Assembly (NCBI GenBank): GCA_025361885.1 | Contig: JANYJF010000008.1 | Coordinates: 99,263 to 163,262 of the forward strand | From: Coriobacteriia bacterium | GTDB taxonomy: Bacteria; Actinomycetota; Coriobacteriia; Anaerosomatales; PALSA-660 | Direction: 5' to 3' | DNA length: 64,000 nucleotides | In this document: piece by piece, positions 31,362 through 56,980 of the stretch | Layout: each line of letters begins with the position of its first letter | Position numbering within the stretch: the first letter of the stretch is position 1 | Program-made: the position numbers and the translations under genes | Notes under the pieces: model-generated | Databases searched by the model: none | The model's input: the letters and a program-made list of their open reading frames with translations, nothing else | What the model was told of the DNA's origin: nothing

Positions 31362-31468
31362 GGCCGCCGTTCGCGCGACACGGTCATCCGCCCTTGACGC
31401 GGGCGTACCGGGTTCCCTATCATTCCATCCCGCGCCCCACGTAGGCGGGAGCGCGAGGATTGCCTCAT

Positions 31469-31542
31469 TGGGGCGTAGTCTAATGGTAGGACGGCGGGTT
31501 CTGGTCCCGTGTGTGAGGGTTCGACTCCTTCCGCCCCAGCCA
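31469..31542 (+). tRNA. tRNA-Gln (anticodon CUG), CCA encoded
   Basis: Cloverleaf folded by hand: acceptor UGGGGCG/CGCCCCA, anticodon arm GCGGG-UUCUGGU-CCCGU, T-loop GGUUCGACU. Confidence 0.9.
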
Positions 31543-31571
31543 TGAGGTTCCTAGGTTCGGCTCCATCGCAC

Positions 31572-31647
31572 GGCCCGTTCGTCTAGCGGTTAGGACACCG
31601 CCCTCTCAAGGCGGAGATCACGGGTTCGAATCCCGTACGGGCTACCA
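31572..31647 (+). tRNA. tRNA-Glu (anticodon CUC), CCA encoded
   Basis: Acceptor GGCCCGU/ACGGGCU, anticodon arm CCGCC-CUCUCAA-GGCGG, T-loop GGUUCGAAU. Confidence 0.9.
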
Positions 31648-31657
31648 GACTATCTTC

Positions 31658-31688
31658 GAAGGACCCCGACGGGGTCCTTCTTCACTTC
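31658..31688 (+). terminator. hairpin terminator after the tRNA pair
   Basis: GAAGGACCCC-GAC-GGGGUCCUUC followed by UUCACUUC. Confidence 0.6.
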
Positions 31689-31756
31689 AGGAAGCGGGGT
31701 CTCTCTTCACTTCAGAGAGGTCGCGGCGAGGACGGACGGCGCGTAGGCAGAGCGCC

Positions 31757-31765
31757 TGTTAGAAT
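31757..31765 (+). promoter_or_regulatory. extended -10 promoter (TGTTAGAAT) of rnpB
   Basis: TGn-TAGAAT ends 6-7 nt before the first nucleotide of the RNase P RNA terminal helix. No good -35 element. Confidence 0.5.
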
Positions 31766-31771
31766 GGCACG

Positions 31772-32158
31772 TGGGAGCGGGCCAGACGGCCGCGCGGACG
31801 GGCACCTGTGCACGGACGTGAGGAAAGTCGGGGCTCCGCAGGGCAGGGTGCAGGCTAACGGCCTGGCGTCGCGAGGCGACGGAAAGTGCCACAGAAAAGA
31901 AAACTCCGCCGATACCGCTGCTGCCCGCTCACGCGGGAAGTGGCCCGTCGGCGGAAAAGCTGAAACGGTGCGGTAAGAGCGCACCAGCGTCATGGTGACA
32001 TGGCGGCTTGGCAAACCCCACCCGGAGCAAGGGCGAATAGGAGCGATCAAGGCCGGCCCGGCCGCCGCTCGGGTACGCCCGCTTGAGACCGCCGGTAACG
32101 GCGGCCCTAGATAGATGGTCGTTCACGACAAGACCCCGCTTATCGGCCCGCTCCCACT
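31772..32158 (+). ncRNA. rnpB: RNase P RNA, bacterial type A
   Basis: GAGGAAAGUCGGGGCUCC (P4), CCACAGAAAAG, GGUAAGAGCGCACC, GGCAAACCCCACC, CUAGAUAGAUGG and ACAAGACCCCGCUUAUCGG. Terminal helix GGGAGCGGGCC/GGCCCGCUCCC. Confidence 0.9.
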
Positions 32159-39707: not shown

Positions 39708-42700
39708 TCACACGGTCGCGCTCGCGTCTTCCCACGACTCCTCCTCCGGCGCGCCCGCACCGGGTCGCTGCGGCCCCATCGACCCGAGCCCGACGCCACG
39801 CCGCAGCCGCACGGGCTCGCCCACGTCGGTGCGCACCACGTACGGCGACACCTTGTCCGCGATGATCGCGAGGCCACGCTCCGGGTTGTTCTGCAGGATG
39901 CCTTCGACCAGGTAGCAGCGATGGCGGACGATCGTCTCCCCCGCCCGCATGAGCGCGTCGGAGAACACGACGACGTCGAGCAGTCCCGTGGCATCCTCCA
40001 GCGTCAGGAAGCAGGTCCGCTTGCCGGACTTCGTCGGCGGCGTCTGCGCGCGCTCGCGCACGCCGACGACCCGCACGCGCATGCGGTCCGGCAACCGCGC
40101 CAGATCGCGGGCCAGCATCACCCGCCGTGCGTCGAGGTCCTTCGCGCACAGTTCGAGCGGATGACAGGTGATCGCCAGGCCCATGAGCTCCAGCTCGGCG
40201 CCCAGCCGTCTGGCCGGCGACCATCCCGACACGTGTCCCGTCGCGTCGCGCGCGCGGGCCCGCGCCGGCGCCAGCGCCAACGTCCGGTCTCCCGCCACCC
40301 CTTCCTTCGCGATAACAGCCTTGATCTCCGGCAGCAGCACGAGCATCTCGTCGCGCGTGGGCGGACGGGCGGCCTCGGTGGTGCCGAGCCCGTCGAGGGC
40401 GCCGACCCGGATCAGGCTGGCCACCGCGTCCACTTCGCCGCGCGTGCGCCGAAGCAGGTCCGCGAGGTCCTCGAAGGGCCGGACGGCCCTCTCCTTCTCG
40501 ATGCGTGCGAGCAGCCGGACGTTCATGTTCAGCAGCCCCTTGAGGCCCACGCGGATAGCGGCTCCATCCTTCTCCACCGTGCAGTCCGCGCCCGACGCGT
40601 TGACGTGCGGCGGCAGGATCGCGATGCCGTGATGCCGTGCGTCGTCGAGCACGAGGCGCGGCGAATAGAACCCCATCGGCTCGTTGTTGACGATGGCGGC
40701 GGCGAACTCGGCCGGGTAGTGGACCTTGAGCCACCCGCTCGCGTAACTGACCACGGCGAAGCATGCCGCGTGAGCCTTGTTGAAGCCGTACGCCGCGAAG
40801 CCCTGCAGCTGGCGGAACACCTCCTCAGCTACTTCGTGCGACGAGCCGAGCGCGCACGCCCTCTCCACAAAGCCCGCGTGCAGCTTCTCCATCTCCGCGC
40901 GGGAGCGGCCCTTGGTCATCGCACGGCGCAGCGAGTCGGCTTCGGCCAGGGTGAAGCCCGCTACCGCTTTGGCCACCTGCAACACCTGCTCCTGGTAGAC
41001 GATGACACCGTAGGTGTCGCGTAGCACGTGACCCATGCCGGGGTGCGGCACGACCACCGGCTCCATGCCATGCCTTCGCCTGATGAACGGGACGATCATC
41101 TCGGCCTCGAGCGGACCGGGCCGGAACAGCGAGATCGCCGCGATGATGTCGGTGAAGCGCGACGCCCGCAGGCGCGTGTTGAGGTTGCGCTGCCCGGAGC
41201 TCTCCAGCTGGAACATCCCGACCGTGTCCGCGGCGGCGATGGCGGCGTAGACGGCCGGGTCGTCGTGCGGCAGCTCGAACGGCTCGGGCACCGCGTCCTC
41301 CCCGACACGCGCCCTCGCCATCTCCACGGTCTCGGATATCGCTGAATGGATGCGAAGGCCCAAGATGTCCATCTTGACCAGTCCGAGCGCCTCGACGTCG
41401 TCCTTGTCGTACTGCGCGACGACCACGCCCTTGGCCGCCCACTGCAGCGGCGCCCACGTGTCGACCGGCTCGCGGGTTATCAGGAAGCCGCCGAGGTGCG
41501 TGCCGAGGTGCATCGGCGTGTGGTCGAGCTGCTCGGCGATCTCCAGGAGAAGCTCGTGCCCCGGCTCCTTCAAGGGATGGTGCTCGCACTCCGGATAGGT
41601 GGTCAGCACGTCTCGTATCTTGCGCGCGGAGACCCACGGCAGGTGGCGCGACAGCGCGTTGACCTCCTCCGGAGCATGTCCGAGCGCCTTGGCTGCCGTG
41701 CGCACCGCGCTCTTGGCAGTCATGGTGTTGACCGTTGCGATCATGGCCACGTGCTCGCTGCCGAACCGCTTGTAGATGAAGTCGATGACCTCGTCTCTGC
41801 GCGCGGAGTCGAAGTCCACGTCGATGTCGGGCATCTGGCGGCGGGCCGGGTTGAGGAACCGCTCGAAGAGCAGGTCGTGTTCGACGGGGTCGGCGTCGGT
41901 GATGCCCAGGACGTAGGTCACGATGCTGTCCCCGGCGCTGCCGCGGCCCGAGCAGCGGATGCCCCGCCCCTTCGCGAAGGTGACGATCTCCCGCACCGTC
42001 AGGAAGTACTCGGAGAAGCCGAGCTCCTCGATGACACCGAGTTCGTACTGCATGCGCCGCAGCGCCTCGGGGGTGACGGGACGGTAGCGCTCCTCGAGTC
42101 CACGCCACGCGAGTCCGGCGAGTGTCGAGTACGGCGTCTCGCCGCTTGGGACCTCGATGCTGGGGAAATGGAACGCTCCCAGACCGAGGTCCAGGTTGCA
42201 GCGCTCCGCTATCTCGAGAGTGGCGTCGCACGCGCCGGGGAGATTGGCGAACAGGCGACGCATCTCGGTGGCGGTCTTGAACGACAGCTCCGCGTTGGAC
42301 CGCAGCAGCGGTCCGGGGAGCGCTTCCCGCGCCCCGACCGAGGACAGCACGTCATGGATGCGGTGCTGCTCCCGCTCGACGTAGTGGATGTCGTTCGTGG
42401 CCACAAGCGGCACCCCGAGGCTCTCCGCGAGACCGGCCAGGCCTGCGATCAGGCGGGTCGAGTCCGCCGTGAGCTCGTGGACGGCCTCGATGTAGAAGTC
42501 GCCGGGCGAGAAGCAGGCCGCGAGCCGCCTCGCGGCCTCGCGGGCGCGCCACGGCTGGCCGGCTGCGACCGACGCCGCCACCTCGCCCCTCCCGCATCCC
42601 GACAGTCCGATGAGCCCTTCGCTACACCGTGCGAGGTCGCGCAGCAAGACCACCGAGCGTGCGGACCCCTCACCGTCCTCCGACTCCCGACGCAGGTGCG

Positions 42701-43079
42701 CGGCCGACAGCAGCCGGCACAGGTTGCGGTAGCCGTGGATGTCCCGCGCGAGCAGCGTGAGGTGGAATCCGGACGCCGACGCCCGCCCGAAGCCGCTCGG
42801 ATACGGCGCCATCAGCCGATCAGTGGGCGGCAGGTCGCACTCGGGCTCCGCGATCCCGCACGTCTCGACGACCACCTCCGCCCCGATGATCGGCTTGATG
42901 CCCGCCGCGATCGCCTTCTGGTAGAAGCGGATGGCGCCGTACAACCCTTGGTGGTCCGTGAGGGCGAGCGCAGGCATCCCGCATCGCTTCGCCTTGGCGA
43001 TCAGTCCGTCGAGCGACGACGCGCCGTCCATGAAGCTGAACGACGAGTGGACATGGAGATGGACGAACGAACCCGCCAC
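39708..43079 (-). CDS. dnaE2: error-prone DNA polymerase DnaE2 (Pol III alpha C-family)
   Basis: PHP N-terminus FVHLHVHSSFSFMDGASS is the DnaE2-type HxHSxFSF(L/M)DGAS signature. Lies downstream of a LexA box. Preferred start is GTG 43079, 8 nt after GGGGG and 17 nt after the upstream stop; the ORF extends to 43328. Confidence 0.85.
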   Translation of the reverse strand: MAGSFVHLHVHSSFSFMDGASSLDGLIAKAKRCGMPALALTDHQGLYGAIRFYQKAIAAGIKPIIGAEVVVETCGIAEPECDLPPTDRLMAPYPSGFGRASASGFHLTLLARDIHGYRNLCRLLSAAHLRRESEDGEGSARSVVLLRDLARCSEGLIGLSGCGRGEVAASVAAGQPWRAREAARRLAACFSPGDFYIEAVHELTADSTRLIAGLAGLAESLGVPLVATNDIHYVEREQHRIHDVLSSVGAREALPGPLLRSNAELSFKTATEMRRLFANLPGACDATLEIAERCNLDLGLGAFHFPSIEVPSGETPYSTLAGLAWRGLEERYRPVTPEALRRMQYELGVIEELGFSEYFLTVREIVTFAKGRGIRCSGRGSAGDSIVTYVLGITDADPVEHDLLFERFLNPARRQMPDIDVDFDSARRDEVIDFIYKRFGSEHVAMIATVNTMTAKSAVRTAAKALGHAPEEVNALSRHLPWVSARKIRDVLTTYPECEHHPLKEPGHELLLEIAEQLDHTPMHLGTHLGGFLITREPVDTWAPLQWAAKGVVVAQYDKDDVEALGLVKMDILGLRIHSAISETVEMARARVGEDAVPEPFELPHDDPAVYAAIAAADTVGMFQLESSGQRNLNTRLRASRFTDIIAAISLFRPGPLEAEMIVPFIRRRHGMEPVVVPHPGMGHVLRDTYGVIVYQEQVLQVAKAVAGFTLAEADSLRRAMTKGRSRAEMEKLHAGFVERACALGSSHEVAEEVFRQLQGFAAYGFNKAHAACFAVVSYASGWLKVHYPAEFAAAIVNNEPMGFYSPRLVLDDARHHGIAILPPHVNASGADCTVEKDGAAIRVGLKGLLNMNVRLLARIEKERAVRPFEDLADLLRRTRGEVDAVASLIRVGALDGLGTTEAARPPTRDEMLVLLPEIKAVIAKEGVAGDRTLALAPARARARDATGHVSGWSPARRLGAELELMGLAITCHPLELCAKDLDARRVMLARDLARLPDRMRVRVVGVRERAQTPPTKSGKRTCFLTLEDATGLLDVVVFSDALMRAGETIVRHRCYLVEGILQNNPERGLAIIADKVSPYVVRTDVGEPVRLRRGVGLGSMGPQRPGAGAPEEESWEDASATV

Positions 43080-43095
43080 GAGGTCAGCCCCCGCG

Positions 43096-43506
43096 CTAGT
43101 CCGCGATCCCGGTGAGCAACCACGTTCCGCCCAGCCGGTCGTACGCCAGATCGAACGTGCCTCCGCCTGCGAGTACGCGAAAGCAGCGGCGCGAGACATG
43201 TCGCGCACGGTCCCACCATGCCCGCTCCACCGTCCACTGTTGGACGACGGCCTCGACCAGGTACGTCCGTCCGCCATGGACGAACCCCAACGGCCGTCCC
43301 GAGTCGCCGTCCCACTCCACCGGCACAATGATCTCCGCGCGCTTGCCGGCGGAGGCGCCCGACGGCAGCTCCGAGGCGCGGCGCACCCATGGCGTGCCGA
43401 GCAGCTCGGCTATCACCGGGCGACGGCTCTGGACGGTGTCGAACAGCGTGATCGGCTGGCCGTCGGGGTGCGCGTCGAACCGTTTGATGGCGGCGTTGTG
43501 GCCCAT
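43096..43506 (-). CDS. small SOS-cassette protein (136 aa), C-terminal WW-containing domain resembling DUF6504
   Basis: Very strong GC3 bias. ATG 43506 is the only start downstream of the predicted TSS. C-terminus reads GFVHGGRTYLVEAVVQQWTVERAWWD...RRCFRVLAGGGTFDLAYDRLGGTWLLTGIAD. The family assignment is from memory only. Confidence 0.65.
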   Translation of the reverse strand: MGHNAAIKRFDAHPDGQPITLFDTVQSRRPVIAELLGTPWVRRASELPSGASAGKRAEIIVPVEWDGDSGRPLGFVHGGRTYLVEAVVQQWTVERAWWDRARHVSRRCFRVLAGGGTFDLAYDRLGGTWLLTGIAD

Positions 43507-43592
43507 ATGTTCCGGGAGCTTCCTTGTGTGGAGGGGACACGCGGGTCGCCAACGGCGTGATCCTCCTCGCCTGGTGCCCGACCCGCATCTCG

Positions 43593-43621
43593 AGTATATC
43601 GAACGTATGTTCGGTATACAA
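43593..43621 (-). promoter_or_regulatory. SOS promoter TTGTAT-17 nt-TATACT
   Basis: -35 at 43616-43621 and -10 at 43593-43598 (minus strand). The 17-nt spacer contains the LexA box. Confidence 0.55.
43600..43613. promoter_or_regulatory. LexA operator (Cheo/SOS box CGAAC-N4-GTTCG)
   Basis: Perfect palindrome CGAACGTATGTTCG inside the promoter spacer, upstream of the small protein and dnaE2. Confidence 0.75.
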
Positions 43622-43671
43622 CGCGACTCTGACACGCGGCGTACACGTTCGGGCGAACGGAACGGAAGGCG

Positions 43672-44328
43672 CTACTGAGCGTCGTCAGGATGCACGATCA
43701 CACGCGACGCAAGCTCGCGTCCGAGAGCGTGCGGCGAACCTGCGACTGCCACGAGCATGGCCCCGTCCATGGGCGCGATCTCAAGGATGTCCACGTGCGC
43801 ACCTGGGAACAGTCGCAGGGACGCAAGATGCGCGAGCAGCGTCTCATCGTCCTCGGCCACGCTCAGGATCGACGCCCCTGCTCCGGCGGGGACATCCGAC
43901 AGCGGCACGCCCTTGACTGATGCGATCTTCCCGTCCGACGACGGGATCGGGTGCCCGTGCGGACAGACCTCCGGATTGCTCAGGAACTCCTCAAGGGCGC
44001 TTTGGACCCGCGGCGAGAGCGCGTGTTCCAGCTTGCAGGCCTCCTCGTGGACCTCGTCCCACGGCAGTCCCAGGACGTCGACGAGCAGGCGCTCGGCGAG
44101 CCGATGGCGCCTGATGATGCTCAGCGCCTCGAGCCTTCCCTGGCTCGTGAGCGCGACGCCTCCGCCCGGACGCTCGACCAGACCCGCCGCCTCGAGCCTG
44201 CGAAGCGTCGCGGTCACCGTCGGTCCGGAAACCGACAAGGCCTCCGCGAGTTGCGTGGGACGGACCTCGCCGGACTCCGAGATCTTGTAGATCGTCTCCA
44301 GGTACTCTTCCAAGGTCTCGCTCGGCAT
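43672..44328 (-). CDS. DtxR/IdeR-family metal-dependent transcriptional regulator with C-terminal FeoA/SH3-like domain
   Basis: Start ATG 44328 (MPSETLEEYLETIYKISESG). HTH, the metal-site helix HEEACKLEH and a FeoA-like tail. Confidence 0.88.
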   Translation of the reverse strand: MPSETLEEYLETIYKISESGEVRPTQLAEALSVSGPTVTATLRRLEAAGLVERPGGGVALTSQGRLEALSIIRRHRLAERLLVDVLGLPWDEVHEEACKLEHALSPRVQSALEEFLSNPEVCPHGHPIPSSDGKIASVKGVPLSDVPAGAGASILSVAEDDETLLAHLASLRLFPGAHVDILEIAPMDGAMLVAVAGSPHALGRELASRVIVHPDDAQ

Positions 44329-44387
44329 GGCGGCTTCCCGTTGGCTCGGGGACTCGAGGGGATGCGCCGCACGACCGCGGCTCCACG

Positions 44388-44393
44388 AGTATA
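44388..44393 (-). promoter_or_regulatory. candidate -10 (TATACT) of the dtxR-family gene
   Basis: TATACT on the minus strand, about 60 nt upstream of ATG 44328. No convincing -35. Confidence 0.35.
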
Positions 44394-44515
44394 GCGCAGC
44401 GACATGCGCGGTCCGCCCAGCACGGCGACAAGAGGACGGACCCGGTTGGCAGGCCGGACGGCGCCGACAACAGCACACCCCGTCGACCCTCACTGCGAAG
44501 CCGCTCATCCGCCAC

Positions 44516-44548
44516 TTGCGACCTTGCATCGCAATTGCTGGCAATTGC
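44516..44548. promoter_or_regulatory. cluster of palindromes upstream of RNA unit A promoter (possible operator)
   Basis: TTGCGA-N7-TCGCAA (44516-44534), then GCAATTGC at 44531-44538 and again at 44541-44548. Ends 12 nt before the -35. Confidence 0.4.
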
Positions 44549-44559
44549 GGAATCCACCA

Positions 44560-44588
44560 TTGACCGGGCCTCCACAGACCCCTATCGT
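44560..44588 (+). promoter_or_regulatory. promoter of RNA unit A: TTGACC-17 nt-TATCGT
   Basis: -35 at 44560-44565 and -10 at 44583-44588. Same hexamers and spacing as unit B. Confidence 0.55.
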
Positions 44589-44595
44589 CGCACTT

Positions 44596-44767
44596 GTCCC
44601 GAGAAGTCGGACCGAGCGAGACTTGAAAACCGGAGTACCAGTAGCTGCCTCACCGGGCGGTGTGTGAAAGGGTCTAGTCGCGAGACGAGCCTGAGTACCG
44701 CTCCTTCGGAAGGGCGTGAAACGGGAAACCGGTTGCTAGAGTCCACGCAGGCGAGGTCTCTCGGGAC
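44596..44767 (+). ncRNA. unclassified structured RNA, tandem paralog A (172 nt core)
   Basis: Terminal helix GUCCCGAGA/UCUCGGGAC starts 7 nt after the -10. Internal hairpins include a GNRA-capped one (GUC-GCGA-GAC). Compensatory changes relative to unit B. No credible ORF. Confidence 0.6.
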
Positions 44768-44786
44768 ACCTCTTTGTCCCGGATCC

Positions 44787-44811
44787 GATGGGCTCGACTC
44801 CGGGCCCATTC
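44787..44811 (+). terminator. hairpin after RNA unit A (possible weak terminator)
   Basis: AUGGGC-N10-GCCCAU with no U-tract. Confidence 0.3.
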
Positions 44812-44921
44812 GGGGCGTCGGAACCGCTCGCCGCACGCGTTCCGGCTATCCGGCCCAACGCGCCATTCCGCCGCCCAATTCAGCCACTCGCCGCAAGCAT
44901 CAGCAATCTTCGAATCCGCTA

Positions 44922-44950
44922 TTGACCACGCTTCCGGGTACCTCTATCGT
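44922..44950 (+). promoter_or_regulatory. promoter of RNA unit B: TTGACC-17 nt-TATCGT
   Basis: -35 at 44922-44927 and -10 at 44945-44950. Confidence 0.55.
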
Positions 44951-44957
44951 CACAGTC

Positions 44958-45128
44958 GTCCCAAGAAGTCGGACCGAGCGAGACTTGAAAACCAGCGTAC
45001 CAGTAGCTGCCCCTCCGGGGTTCCGCGAAACGGTCAGGTCGCAAGGCAGGCCCTGAGTACCGGGTTCCGGGTGGGTGTGAAACGGGAAGCTGGCGAGTAG
45101 ATCCTCCGCAGGCGAGGTTTCTTGGGAC
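44958..45128 (+). ncRNA. unclassified structured RNA, tandem paralog B (171 nt core)
   Basis: Terminal helix GUCCCAAGAA/UUCUUGGGAC starts 7 nt after the -10. GNRA hairpin GUC-GCAA-GGC. Followed by a strong terminator. Confidence 0.6.
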
Positions 45129-45147
45129 ACTACTTTGTCTCGAGACA

Positions 45148-45189
45148 GGAGCGGGGCCCCGGCGGGGCCCCGCTCCTTCGCATTTTCAG
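45148..45189. terminator. GC-rich hairpin terminator (ends RNA unit B on plus; also lies just downstream of queD on minus)
   Basis: GGAGCGGGGCCCC-GGC-GGGGCCCCGCUCC followed on the plus strand by UUCGCAUUUUC. Confidence 0.6.
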
Positions 45190-45209
45190 ACAGGATCCCG
45201 GGCGTTCGC

Positions 45210-45575
45210 CTAGGGCCGATAGACCAATCGCGCGACCGGCGACTCCCACACAGCCACCTCACGGACGCGCACCTGCTCCCCCACGGTCTCCACGAGCCGC
45301 TCGAAGATGACACGGGCCAGGTTCTCCGCGGTCGGGGTGATGACGTCGAACGGTGGGACGTCGTTGATCAAGACGTGATCGTAGTTCGTGATGACTGCGG
45401 CAAGGTCGTCCTTCAGCTGCTTGAAGTCGTACACGATCCCGATATCGTCGAGCGTGGCCCCCACAACCGTCACCTCCACATCCCACGTGTGGCCGTGCAG
45501 GTTGCGACACTCGCCGGGATAGTCGCGCAGCGCATGCGCCGCGTCGAAATGGCCCTTCACAGTCAACTCGTACAC
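45210..45575 (-). CDS. queD: 6-carboxy-5,6,7,8-tetrahydropterin synthase
   Basis: YELTVKGHFDAAHALRDYPGECRNLHGHTW (Cx3HGH zinc motif). Start GTG 45575, 8 nt after GGGAG; the ORF extends to 45638. Confidence 0.85.
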   Translation of the reverse strand: MYELTVKGHFDAAHALRDYPGECRNLHGHTWDVEVTVVGATLDDIGIVYDFKQLKDDLAAVITNYDHVLINDVPPFDVITPTAENLARVIFERLVETVGEQVRVREVAVWESPVARLVYRP

Positions 45576-45588
45576 GAGCCAGCTCCCA

Positions 45589-46050
45589 TCAGTCGAACAG
45601 CGCGCCCTGGGTGGCGCCCCAACCGGACCCGACGCCATCGCCGATCTCCGAGCGCGTATCCATCGCTTCGTTCGCCAGCGTGTCCGCCAGTGTGTTGTCC
45701 GAACGCCGGACGTGGCATACCTCGATGCGTTCGAAGCGGCGCAGGAGCGCCGTCACCTTCGCATGTAGCGGCTTCATGTTCGGATGCTTCACCTTGTACA
45801 CGCCGTTGACCTGGCGCACCACGAGCTCCGAGTCGGCACACACCTTGAGCCGGCGCACCCCGTGATCGATCGCCGTCTCCAGTCCCCAGATCAGCGCCTC
45901 GTACTCGGCGACGTTGTTCGTCGTCTCGCCGAGGTATCGGCCGCCGCTGCGGACGACTGAACCATCCCCTGCTTCGATGACGAAGCCGGCAGCTGCCGGC
46001 CCGGGGTTGCCGCGCGCGCCTCCGTCGGTCCTGAGCGTGTAGCCAGCCAT
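45589..46050 (-). CDS. rnhA: ribonuclease HI family protein
   Basis: RTDGGARGNPGPAAAGF..., NNVAEYEALIWGL and DSELVVRQ (DEDD RNase H motifs). Confidence 0.85.
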   Translation of the reverse strand: MAGYTLRTDGGARGNPGPAAAGFVIEAGDGSVVRSGGRYLGETTNNVAEYEALIWGLETAIDHGVRRLKVCADSELVVRQVNGVYKVKHPNMKPLHAKVTALLRRFERIEVCHVRRSDNTLADTLANEAMDTRSEIGDGVGSGWGATQGALFD

Positions 46051-46051
46051 G

Positions 46052-46774
46052 CTAGACGTGGTCCTGCGGGACGATCAGGAGGCGCTGGCACGACGGGCAT
46101 ACGGCGATCGCGGGACCGGACTTCAACGCCAGGAGCCGCTCGCCGGGGAGCTCGATCCGGCATGCGGTGCAGCTTCGTCCTTCCAAGACTCCCACGGCGA
46201 TCCCGTGCTTGGTGTCCAGCAAAGAGGTGTACTTCTCGCGCAGGTCGACAGGCAGCTTGCCGGACAACGCCTGGCGTTCCTTCTTGAGCCGCTCGATCTC
46301 GGCGAGGAGCTCCGCGCCCTTGTTCTGGAAGTCGGCGAGCATGGCCGCCTCCTTGGCACGACCCACCTTGATGGCGGCCTGGATCTTGTCGCTCTGCTGC
46401 TGCGCAGCTTCGCGCTTCTCCATGGCCGCGAGGATCTCACCATCGATATGCTCACGCTGCTTGACCAGCGATGCGAGTTCCTTGGAAATGTTCTGGAGCT
46501 CCTTGGGGTTCGTGACCTCGCCGGATAGGAGCTTCGCCTGCTCGTGGTCGATCTTCTCGCTTATGCGGGCGGACTCGTCCTCGGACTTCCGCAGGGCCGC
46601 GTCCAGCACGTGCCCGACCTTCTCGGTCCTGGCGAGCAAGGTCTCGATCTCCGCGATCCTGTGACGGGCCGCGAGGATCGCGCGCTTCTCCGGCATCTCG
46701 TCGAGATGCTTGTGAGCACGCACCAGGCGCAGGTCTCTCGCTTGCAGCTCGAGCAGGATCTGGCTCACATCCAT
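46052..46774 (-). CDS. coiled-coil C4 zinc-ribbon protein (COG1579/DUF164 type)
   Basis: Start ATG 46774 (MDVSQILLELQ). Long coiled coil, then CTACRIEL...CPSCQRLL. Confidence 0.8.
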   Translation of the reverse strand: MDVSQILLELQARDLRLVRAHKHLDEMPEKRAILAARHRIAEIETLLARTEKVGHVLDAALRKSEDESARISEKIDHEQAKLLSGEVTNPKELQNISKELASLVKQREHIDGEILAAMEKREAAQQQSDKIQAAIKVGRAKEAAMLADFQNKGAELLAEIERLKKERQALSGKLPVDLREKYTSLLDTKHGIAVGVLEGRSCTACRIELPGERLLALKSGPAIAVCPSCQRLLIVPQDHV

Positions 46775-52826: not shown

Positions 52827-53152
52827 GGCTTCTCCGACCTCCGGCTCTTGCGCAGCCCGCACGGGCTGCTCCGCGCTCAATGATACCCTACGAGGTGCCG
52901 GCGGGAGCGTGCCCTTGAGAGCGGACGGTACCATCGCGGGTAGAGGGCCCCCCGGCGCCTCACAGCGGCCGTTCGCGGCGTCCGAACATCCGTCCGGCTG
53001 AACGCTTCTCACACCTATTGCGGCCGCCTTGATGCGGTGCTAGATTCATCTCCCCCGCACGCGGCCGGGAGGGCAGCGTGTCAGGGACCAGCATCGTAGG
53101 CAATCCATGGTCGATAGCGACAGGGTCGCGAGGACCCGCTGGATTCCAAGTT

Positions 53153-56850: not shown

Positions 56851-56860
56851 GCTTGCTCGA

Positions 56861-56980
56861 CCTTCCTTCTACCATCCGGACTGTAACCGTCGGCCCCGGA
56901 GTCTCACCGGATCTGCGCTTGCGCGCTCGCGGGCTGTCACCGCCGGTGGGGAGTCGCACCCCGCCCTGAAGAAAGCGTCG
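56861..56980 (-). promoter_or_regulatory. FMN riboswitch (RFN element)
   Basis: Minus strand reads CUUCAGGGCGGGGUGCGACUCCCCACCGGCGGUGACAGCCCGCGAGCG...GAUCCGGUGAGACUCCGGGGCCGACGGUUACAGUCCGGAUGGUAGAAGGAAGG. The 3' strand contains the ribD SD. Confidence 0.9.

Follow-up and report, generated by a model that had tools for sequence, protein, structure and literature searches.

The DNA analysed here is a 64,000-nt stretch (called the window below) of the Coriobacteriia bacterium assembly GCA_025361885.1 (contig JANYJF010000008.1, positions 99,263-163,262). The segment in question, 44329-44595, is the gap between two divergently oriented genes: a gene of the DtxR/IdeR family of metalloregulators (dtxR) on the minus strand, and unit A, the first of two tandem small RNA genes, on the plus strand. 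An earlier interpretation made from the letters alone (the sequence-only reading) had placed the start of the regulator gene at 44328 and a divergent unit A promoter about 230 bp away from it, and had described two tandem paralogous RNAs with promoters of their own and three palindromes immediately upstream of the first promoter. It proposed that the regulator might bind at the RNA promoters, although the palindromes do not resemble the classical iron box, and likened the RNA pair to the PrrF RNAs, which suggested metal-sparing RNAs. Every one of these sequence features was confirmed at the coordinates given at that time (Table 1). The distance between the unit A -35 hexamer and the dtxR start is 232 bp, the two RNA units are 80% identical, and they are preceded by identical TTGACC-N17-TATCGT promoters.

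Table 1. Features of the dtxR-RNA locus, with positions counted from the first nucleotide of the window
Feature	Position	Strand	Basis or remark
DtxR/IdeR-family metalloregulator gene (dtxR), 218 aa	43672-44328	minus	Pfam, IdeR structures and orthologues; winged helix-turn-helix, dimerisation/metal-binding and SH3-like/FeoA domains
Probable -10 of dtxR, TATACT	44390-44395	minus	about 60 nt upstream of the ATG; suggested by a conserved block
Three CCGTTC-like direct repeats: CCGTCG (44480), CCGCTC (44501), CCTTGC (44522)	44480-44527	plus	21-bp phasing
Palindrome TTGCGA-N7-TCGCAA	44516-44534		shares bases with the third CCGTTC-like repeat
Perfect 9-2-9 inverted repeat CGCAATTGC-TG-GCAATTGCG	44530-44549		equals GCAATTGC twice, with 10-bp spacing
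Two A/T clusters: AATT (44543-44546), AAT (44551-44553)	44543-44554	plus	UP-element position; 93-copy profile
Unit A promoter: -35 TTGACC (44560-44565), 17-nt spacer, -10 TATCGT (44583-44588)	44560-44588	plus	hexamers conserved across the family
RNA unit A, rod-like, about 173 nt, closing helix GUCCCGAGAAGUC / GAGGUCUCUCGGGAC	44596-44768	plus	fold, covariation, nhmmer E = 7e-34
Unit B promoter module: CCGGCT (44842), CCATTC (44863), CCACTC (44884); A/T block GCAATCTTCGAATCC; -35 44922-44927; -10 44945-44950	44842-44950	plus	
RNA unit B, paralogue of unit A	44958-45129	plus	nhmmer E = 6e-37
Unit B intrinsic terminator, GGAGCGGGGCCC-CGG-CGGGGCCCCGCTCC followed by TTCGCATTTTC	45148-45187	plus	sequence and fold; convergent with queD (45210-45575, minus strand)

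For comparison, loci of relatives were gathered through the genomic context of DtxR homologues and by a scan in which a single genome of each species was searched for two motifs that are invariant in the RNA. The scan yielded at least 119 loci, comprising about 110 true members of the RNA family and seven chance matches; nearly all of the matches listed were in Coriobacteriia/Anaerosomatales-type metagenome-assembled genomes. All family counts in this work refer to the copies listed. Loci of relatives are designated L001, L002 and so on, with L001/L002 representing the nearest relative (DtxR 91% identical).

The assignment of the regulator to the DtxR/IdeR family was borne out. PF01325 (Fe_dep_repress) matched residues 3-52 with E = 2.4e-16 (60 bits against a cut-off of 26), PF02742 (Fe_dep_repr_C) matched with E = 7.4e-32 and the FeoA/SH3-like C-terminal domain with E = 1.1e-14; among solved structures, IdeR of S. 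erythraea and that of M. tuberculosis come closest (E about 2e-35). The ATG at 44328 is backed by 218-aa orthologues of 91% identity, and a longer open reading frame with a TTG start (43672-44544) was discarded in its favour because the orthologues measure 215-228 aa. In the alignment to IdeR, the equivalents of His79, Glu83, His98, Cys102, Glu105 and His106 are all kept (HEEACKLEH), and Glu8 stands at the position of Met10 of DtxR/IdeR, where the iron-type signature would have Met. This mixture of a Glu at the Met10 position and a retained Cys had already been noticed in the sequence-only reading, and it characterizes the whole group: the ligands H75, E79, H94, C98, E101 and H102 as well as Glu8 show no variation among 14 orthologues with identities of 59-91%. 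At the level of NCBIfam equivalogs neither MntR (NF047407, 134 bits against a cut-off of 350) nor DtxR (NF053665, 125 against 290) was reached. In relatives the gene 3' of dtxR is usually feoB, and this linkage hints at Fe(II) as the metal of the regulator. In the window lineage an operon for DUF6504 and a DnaE-type polymerase lies there instead, and no FeoB homologue was found anywhere in the 64-kb window. Upstream of the ATG, the block CACGAGTATAGCGCAGC around the probable dtxR -10 is invariant between the window and L001/L002, and CTATACTC is seen again upstream of many dtxR orthologues.

Covariation supports the RNA as a genuine structured RNA, and it has no Rfam family. From an alignment of 116 distinct copies a consensus fold of 48 pairs in nine helices was obtained, in which 92.3% of the cells are paired and 29 pairs show double changes. 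Its covariation score was 0.312; column shuffles gave 0.177, and sliding the 3' partners gave 0.04-0.10. The structure forms a rod, about 175 nt in length, that has a 14-bp closing helix, an invariant internal loop, GUACCAGUAGC opposite GAAAYGGGAA, and a GNRA-capped apical hairpin; about 25 nucleotides are invariant, across genomes ranging from 34% to 70% G+C. The RNA is present in more than 100 Coriobacteriia/Anaerosomatales-type genomes, usually in two or three copies that are often found on two or three contigs. Rfam 15 gave no match when 43000-46500 was searched at E<=1, the isolated unit at E<=10 and the whole window at gathering thresholds. Members from genomes of 34-49% G+C, which have the same invariant bases, likewise had no Rfam match (four tested). 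PrrF, 6S and signal recognition particle RNAs and the Mn, NiCo and cobalamin riboswitches were rejected as detectable homologues by the Rfam searches, the sole cobalamin match scoring 7.8 bits. A 3' hairpin of unit A, GGGACA-CCUCUU-UGUCCC, was considered as a riboswitch-like switch and also rejected: it is not conserved in relatives and has no downstream gene. In the literature, the invariant 11-mer of the RNA matched only unrelated primers.

The window holds no copies besides units A and B. Unit A is 85% identical to unit A of L001/L002 and unit B 95% identical to unit B of L001; since A matches A and B matches B, the two lineages were already apart when the window lineage split from that of L001/L002. 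Tandem duplication is nevertheless sporadic in the family. It was seen in the window, in L001/L002, L012 and L089 and, at another locus, in L072, most relatives having a single copy at this place, and it is lineage-specific. The terminator of unit B had been passed over by a simple terminator scan because its T run is interrupted.

To describe the promoters, 93 RNA copies (57 linked to dtxR and 36 unlinked) were aligned without gaps on the -35 hexamer. Within 2.2 kb, TTGACC-N17-TATCGT at 44560-44588 and 44922-44950 were the sole promoter-like sites, with 0.2 expected. The hexamers are kept throughout the family (TTGAC/TTGCG ... TAnnGT), and the spacer is not conserved. Farther upstream the profile revealed a module made of two kinds of elements. 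Counted from where the -35 begins, the CCGTTC-like hexamers are located at -80, -59 and -38 (about -116, -95 and -74 from the start site), and they match in at least five of six bases in 47%, 61% and 65% of the 93 copies, respectively, against a background that averages 0.6% and nowhere exceeds 12%. The A/T clusters occupy -17 to -14 and -9 to -6 from the -35, i.e. about -53 to -50 and -45 to -42 from the start site; the A/T fraction in these columns is 0.81-0.97 and 0.78-0.91, as opposed to 0.29 in the spacer, in genomes of 61-72% G+C. A conserved A/T-rich segment at about -40 to -60, upstream of the -35, is what is expected of an UP-type element. The profile was the same in the dtxR-linked and the unlinked copies, many of the latter lying downstream of gatA-gatB. 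In the low-GC members, which have no dtxR nearby, long A/T tracts are found at the same place upstream of TTGACA.

Against this background the palindromes can be assessed. They were found exactly where the sequence-only reading had put them (44516-44534, 44531-44538 and 44541-44548), and they overlap one another. TTGCGA-N7-TCGCAA is the sole match in 64 kb at up to one mismatch (expected 0.13; at least one match in 11 of 100 shuffles), and its right arm runs into the first copy of GCAATTGC. The two copies of the latter are also the only ones in 64 kb (expected 0.45; two or more copies in 8 of 100 shuffles). Because GCAATTGC is self-complementary, its direct duplication automatically yields an inverted repeat, so the three palindromes are not independent, and as a consequence of this interdependence the statistics are only modest: unusual, not overwhelming. 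It follows from the coordinates of the module that TTGCGA-N7-TCGCAA straddles the third CCGTTC-like repeat and that the second GCAATTGC contains the first A/T cluster. With respect to the other gene, dtxR, the palindromes sit on the upstream side, at a distance of 190-220 bp from the ATG and of about 120-155 bp from the conserved TATACT.

In the nearest relative, L001/L002, the palindrome site reads GCAATTCC..TCGATTCC (full segment CGCAATTCCTGTCGATTCCGG), and in the unit A orthologue of both loci only five of the nine positions of the 9-2-9 repeat are complementary. Among the other 92 anchored copies the corresponding positions were mostly complementary at one to five of nine, with a maximum of seven; window unit B has one of nine. 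The 6-7-6 positions of the first palindrome gave zero to five of six in the other anchored copies, mostly one to three. The symmetry, which had been proposed as the regulator's operator, has thus been lost in the nearest relative and is approached at eight of nine in none of the 92 other copies, and it is private to unit A of this genome. Unit B had been described as keeping a degenerate version of the palindromes. Its counterpart segment, GCATCAGCAATCTTCGAATCC (44897-44917), is as described, but both units turned out to be ordinary cases of the family promoter module, unit A being such a module with an extra, private symmetry.

A different palindrome, cTTAG-N6-CTAAg, recurs upstream of the dtxR orthologues (e.g. 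GTTAGGGTAGACTAACT in L006 and CTTAGAGTAGACTAAGC in L110; bearers also include L019, L032, L038, L066, L074 and L103). It is situated 50-100 nt before the start codon, either over a TAGACT-type -10 (also over a -10 or -35) or about 20 nt upstream of a TATACT -10. At up to one mismatch it was present in 34 of 64 distinct dtxR upstream regions as compared with 28 of 1280 shuffles (2%), most commonly where feoB follows dtxR (23 of 32). This geometry is the one expected of an autoregulated repressor, and we predict that cTTAG-N6-CTAAg is a candidate operator of the Glu8-type DtxR group. The RNA promoters do not share it: no exact match, nor any TTAG-N6/7-CTAA, was found in the 93 RNA promoters, and there was no enrichment upstream of the RNA (8 of 115 regions at up to one mismatch versus 75 of 2300 shuffles); some of these regions reach into the dtxR promoter. 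In the window, the best site in 44329-44600 has three mismatches and none in 64 kb has one or fewer; TTAGNNTANNCTAA likewise had no site at up to two mismatches in the 64-kb window. The window dtxR retains the TATACT block, whereas the box and feoB are both gone.

The sequence-only reading had suggested that conservation of the RNA-regulator adjacency be checked in relatives, and the adjacency proved to be strongly conserved, in about 65 related genomes. Among at least 118 distinct copies, 67 stand back to back with a dtxR orthologue. In these the gap measures 130-294 bp, the median being 252 bp, and the identity of DtxR falls as low as 53%; 63 of the 67 are also convergent with queD. When only the queD-linked copies with enough flanking sequence were considered, dtxR adjoined the RNA in 66 of 66; in five queD-linked copies the locus ends before dtxR would be visible. 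Three copies are co-directional with dtxR. They belong to one clade in which the RNA gene has been turned around at its site, promoter and terminator included (L004:3739-3913, L005:3713-3886 and L065:6947-7121), so that it now precedes dtxR by 88-115 nt on the strand of that gene. This shows that the locus can do without the divergent geometry. Moreover, the adjacency is not specific to the RNA-dtxR pair, because synteny extends over all of Nif3 - Zn-ribbon - RNase H - queD - RNA - dtxR. About 40 of the copies listed are located elsewhere with none of these genes nearby, the commonest spot being downstream of gatA-gatB. The low-GC members have no dtxR, feoB or queD beside the RNA. In a metagenome scan for the low-GC clade, a first pattern found no match and a second one found six loci, none with dtxR, feoB or queD.

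Several other observations were made on the surroundings of the RNA. L126:45-220 and L127:5404-5578 are extra RNA copies 210-234 nt upstream of the DUF6504/polymerase operon and on the same strand, and owing to its extra copy L127 has RNA copies on both sides of dtxR. In L051 (116-2493) the C-terminal region of an RHS/YD-repeat toxin and a small downstream open reading frame are found in place of the queD block, the dtxR-RNA pair being intact. A second paralogue class, with the 5' sequence GAGAGGUCGAACCGGG, is located away from dtxR (loci between L009 and L127, e.g. L013, L022, L045 and L068). Its usual place is on the strand of gatA-gatB, 140-250 nt beyond these genes, and the next gene is membrane-transporter-like or GGDEF-like. 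In the low-GC members L108, L128, L130, L132 and L133 two small genes, conserved as a pair, are convergent with the RNA or overlap it slightly; they encode a protein of about 132 aa (MAKTFGKASDFYR...) and a Cys-rich protein of about 101 aa (...CYALRGCMHCPDCLAFALKF...).

Taking all these observations together, the interpretation that we favour, with a probability of about 0.6, is that 44329-44595 consists of two back-to-back promoters, of which the RNA promoter carries the family-wide module, and that the palindromes are incidental and do not form an operator for the neighbouring DtxR. On the minus strand, dtxR would be transcribed from a promoter with the probable -10 TATACT (44395-44390), in a lineage that has lost both the ancestral partner of dtxR, feoB, and the predicted palindromic operator carried by relatives. 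On the plus strand, the promoter of the structured RNA combines the three helically phased CCGTTC-like repeats with the two A/T clusters. Judging from position and conservation, the A/T clusters may provide an UP-like contact for the alpha subunit of RNA polymerase and the repeats may bind a factor that recognises direct repeats, the module as a whole presumably raising or controlling the transcription of an abundant stable RNA. As the 21-bp-phased repeats are direct and not inverted, the array is unlike the dyad-symmetric sites of DtxR. The palindromes are lineage-specific and probably arose within and between the elements of the module, through a 10-bp duplication that doubled GCAATT(G/C)C. 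As for the conserved adjacency, its most likely source is not shared regulation but the inheritance of gene order in a block that has stayed together, Nif3 - Zn-ribbon - RNase H - queD - RNA - dtxR - feoB.

The sequence-only reading, in which the DtxR-type protein binds the palindromes and the RNAs respond to metals as functional analogues of the Fur-controlled PrrF1/PrrF2, is unlikely in our view. A metal-sparing small RNA pair under a DtxR-type regulator would have been the first such circuit in a poorly studied, mostly uncultured class of actinobacteria. It draws on the divergent synteny described above, on the perfect 20-bp inverted repeat directly upstream of the unit A -35, on the tandem paralogues present in the window, and on feoB as ancestral partner of the regulator, which implies that the locus concerns iron homeostasis. 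It conflicts with the restriction of the palindromes to one unit of one genome, unit B and all unlinked copies having the module without them. The predicted operator of the orthologues is on the regulator's own promoter and not on that of the RNA, no operator covers the -35, the (unconserved) spacer or the -10 of the RNA promoters, and the RNA, whose rod is rich in structure and conserved over great distances, is not a seed-pairing small RNA. There is no Rfam match to PrrF, and the low-GC members are away from metal regulators with the exception of one metal-related neighbour. Metal control of the RNA pair thus finds no support in the sequence, and the sequence-only reading as a whole was partly supported: its family assignment and its synteny hold, its operator and its analogy to PrrF do not.

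The symmetry upstream of unit A invites two further explanations. It could be a recently evolved site for another, lineage-specific DNA-binding protein that acts on unit A only, so that the paralogues would be regulated differently. Units A and B have a common core promoter and differ exactly in the palindrome segment, they were separate lineages before the window lineage split from L001/L002, and GCAATTGC is rare in the window, all of which would fit; but the unit A orthologue of L001/L002 is already without the symmetry, and the motif does not recur in 64 kb in a way that would point to a regulon, and we consider such a site improbable. Even less can be said for a distal autoregulatory or divergent-promoter element of dtxR. 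The region is common to two divergent genes and the orthologues appear to be autoregulated through a palindrome, yet the present palindromes lie far from TATACT (see above), and their distance from the ATG exceeds the 50-100 nt found for the palindrome of the relatives, which also has a different sequence, making this explanation very improbable. A broader proposal leaves the palindromes aside and starts from the RNA, as a new multi-copy structured class with the GUACCAGUAGC / GAAAYGGGAA loops whose ancestral home is back-to-back with dtxR-feoB; it would be tied to Fe/Mn homeostasis either through the factor that binds the CCGTTC repeats or through DtxR at an unrecognised site. We regard this connection, too, as doubtful.

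A number of observations weigh against the interpretation as back-to-back promoters with incidental palindromes. The presence of dtxR beside the RNA in every informative queD-linked copy and the narrow range of the spacing are more than inertia alone might predict. In size, the perfect 9-2-9 repeat would suit a winged-helix protein that binds as a dimer, and it is built from an element found nowhere else in 64 kb, and perfect inverted repeats with 6-nt arms are mildly enriched in -50 to -1 of the promoters (12 of 93 copies versus 98 of 1860 shuffles). Activation from sites upstream of the -35 is within the repertoire of the DtxR family, IdeR at bfrA/bfrB being an example. Since the window lineage is without cTTAG-N6-CTAAg, the operator of its regulator could have changed. 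What the CCGTTC repeats and A/T clusters are proposed to do is deduced from position and conservation. Finally, in L086 (45% G+C) the RNA (344-516) lies 115 nt upstream of a cation-diffusion-facilitator gene for metal efflux (631-1505), which appears to be frameshifted; RNase H - Zn-ribbon - Nif3 are located about 1 kb from this RNA, and among the copies listed the facilitator gene is the sole metal-related neighbour outside the dtxR clade. The synteny record, the size and perfection of the 9-2-9 repeat, the box-less state of the window lineage and this neighbour also keep the metal model alive.

Other parts of the window were inspected as well. A class A RNase P RNA gene (259 bits) is clustered with tRNA-Gln and tRNA-Glu genes (31469-32158) behind a promoter of the sequence TTGACG-N17-TATCAT (31395-31423), which is without the CCGTTC/A-T module. 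Neither this tRNA-Gln promoter nor a promoter-like site near 53019 shared the CCGTTC phasing. A loose search for the CCGTTC array as a general feature of stable-RNA promoters gave 133 matches with 111 expected; this was regarded as noise and the idea was dropped. Directly downstream of dtxR, a LexA box of the Gram-positive type, CGAAC-GTAT-GTTCG (43600-43613), lies beside a minus-strand TATACT (43598-43593), upstream of the DUF6504 gene (43099-43503) and of an open reading frame for the DnaE-type polymerase (39708-43503 region, minus strand). This looks like an SOS-controlled operon for a mutagenic polymerase. An aptamer of a flavin mononucleotide riboswitch was detected at 56860-56977 on the minus strand (110.8 bits).

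Among known systems, PrrF1/PrrF2 of Pseudomonas aeruginosa are tandem, Fur-repressed iron-sparing small RNAs with Fur boxes over the core promoter, and they are short, seed-pairing RNAs. The window resembles them in having two tandem paralogous small RNA genes with promoters of their own at an iron-linked locus. Unlike PrrF, the family described here has no operator at the core promoter, and conservation does not extend to the palindromes upstream of it; the RNA, a covarying rod of 175 nt in which the internal loops are invariant, occurs also at non-metal loci and has no Rfam match to PrrF, and the tandem state is exceptional. The claim of a PrrF-like metal-sparing pair is not supported by this comparison. 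With the IdeR/DtxR systems the locus shares the full set of domains and ligand residues of the regulator, and in the orthologues a TTAG...CTAA palindrome over their own promoter, often with feoB behind dtxR. The cTTAG-N6-CTAAg box differs in spacing from the classical 19-bp iron box TTAGGTTAGSCTAACCTAA, neither the window nor the RNA promoters contain it, and Met10 is replaced by Glu. The operator prediction for the feoB-linked Glu8-type group is a useful outcome that remains.

The RNA itself is reminiscent of 6S RNA: it is a rod of about 175 nt, within the range of about 160-200 nt of 6S-like rods, with a strong promoter of its own, several paralogues per genome and occasional tandem copies. 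Tandem 6S genes are known in the Bacillus cereus group (PMC7726162). No match was obtained with the 6S covariance models, even at E<=10 on the isolated unit, and no reports of 6S RNA from Coriobacteriia were found in the literature. Unlike the open bubble of 6S RNA, the central region GUACCAGUAGC / GAAAYGGGAA looks mostly paired and may be paired rather than open, its invariant bases leaving covariation mute on this point. The synteny of Ms1, with a HAD hydrolase/oxidoreductase (PMC9130861), is different and does not fit. What gives the locus its remaining value is an RNA family that is absent from Rfam 15, is present in two or three copies per genome and has an unusually conserved promoter architecture. 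For this architecture the stable-RNA promoters offer a parallel, E. coli rrnB P1 being one with an UP element and Fis sites. The putative activator repeats here differ in being G+C-rich CCGTTC sequences with 21-bp spacing, and the tRNA/RNase P promoter of the window does not have this architecture. In common with promoters of the rrnB P1 type, those of the RNA family have A/T clusters at about -40 to -55, phased upstream repeats and consensus-like hexamers in front of a gene for a non-coding RNA.

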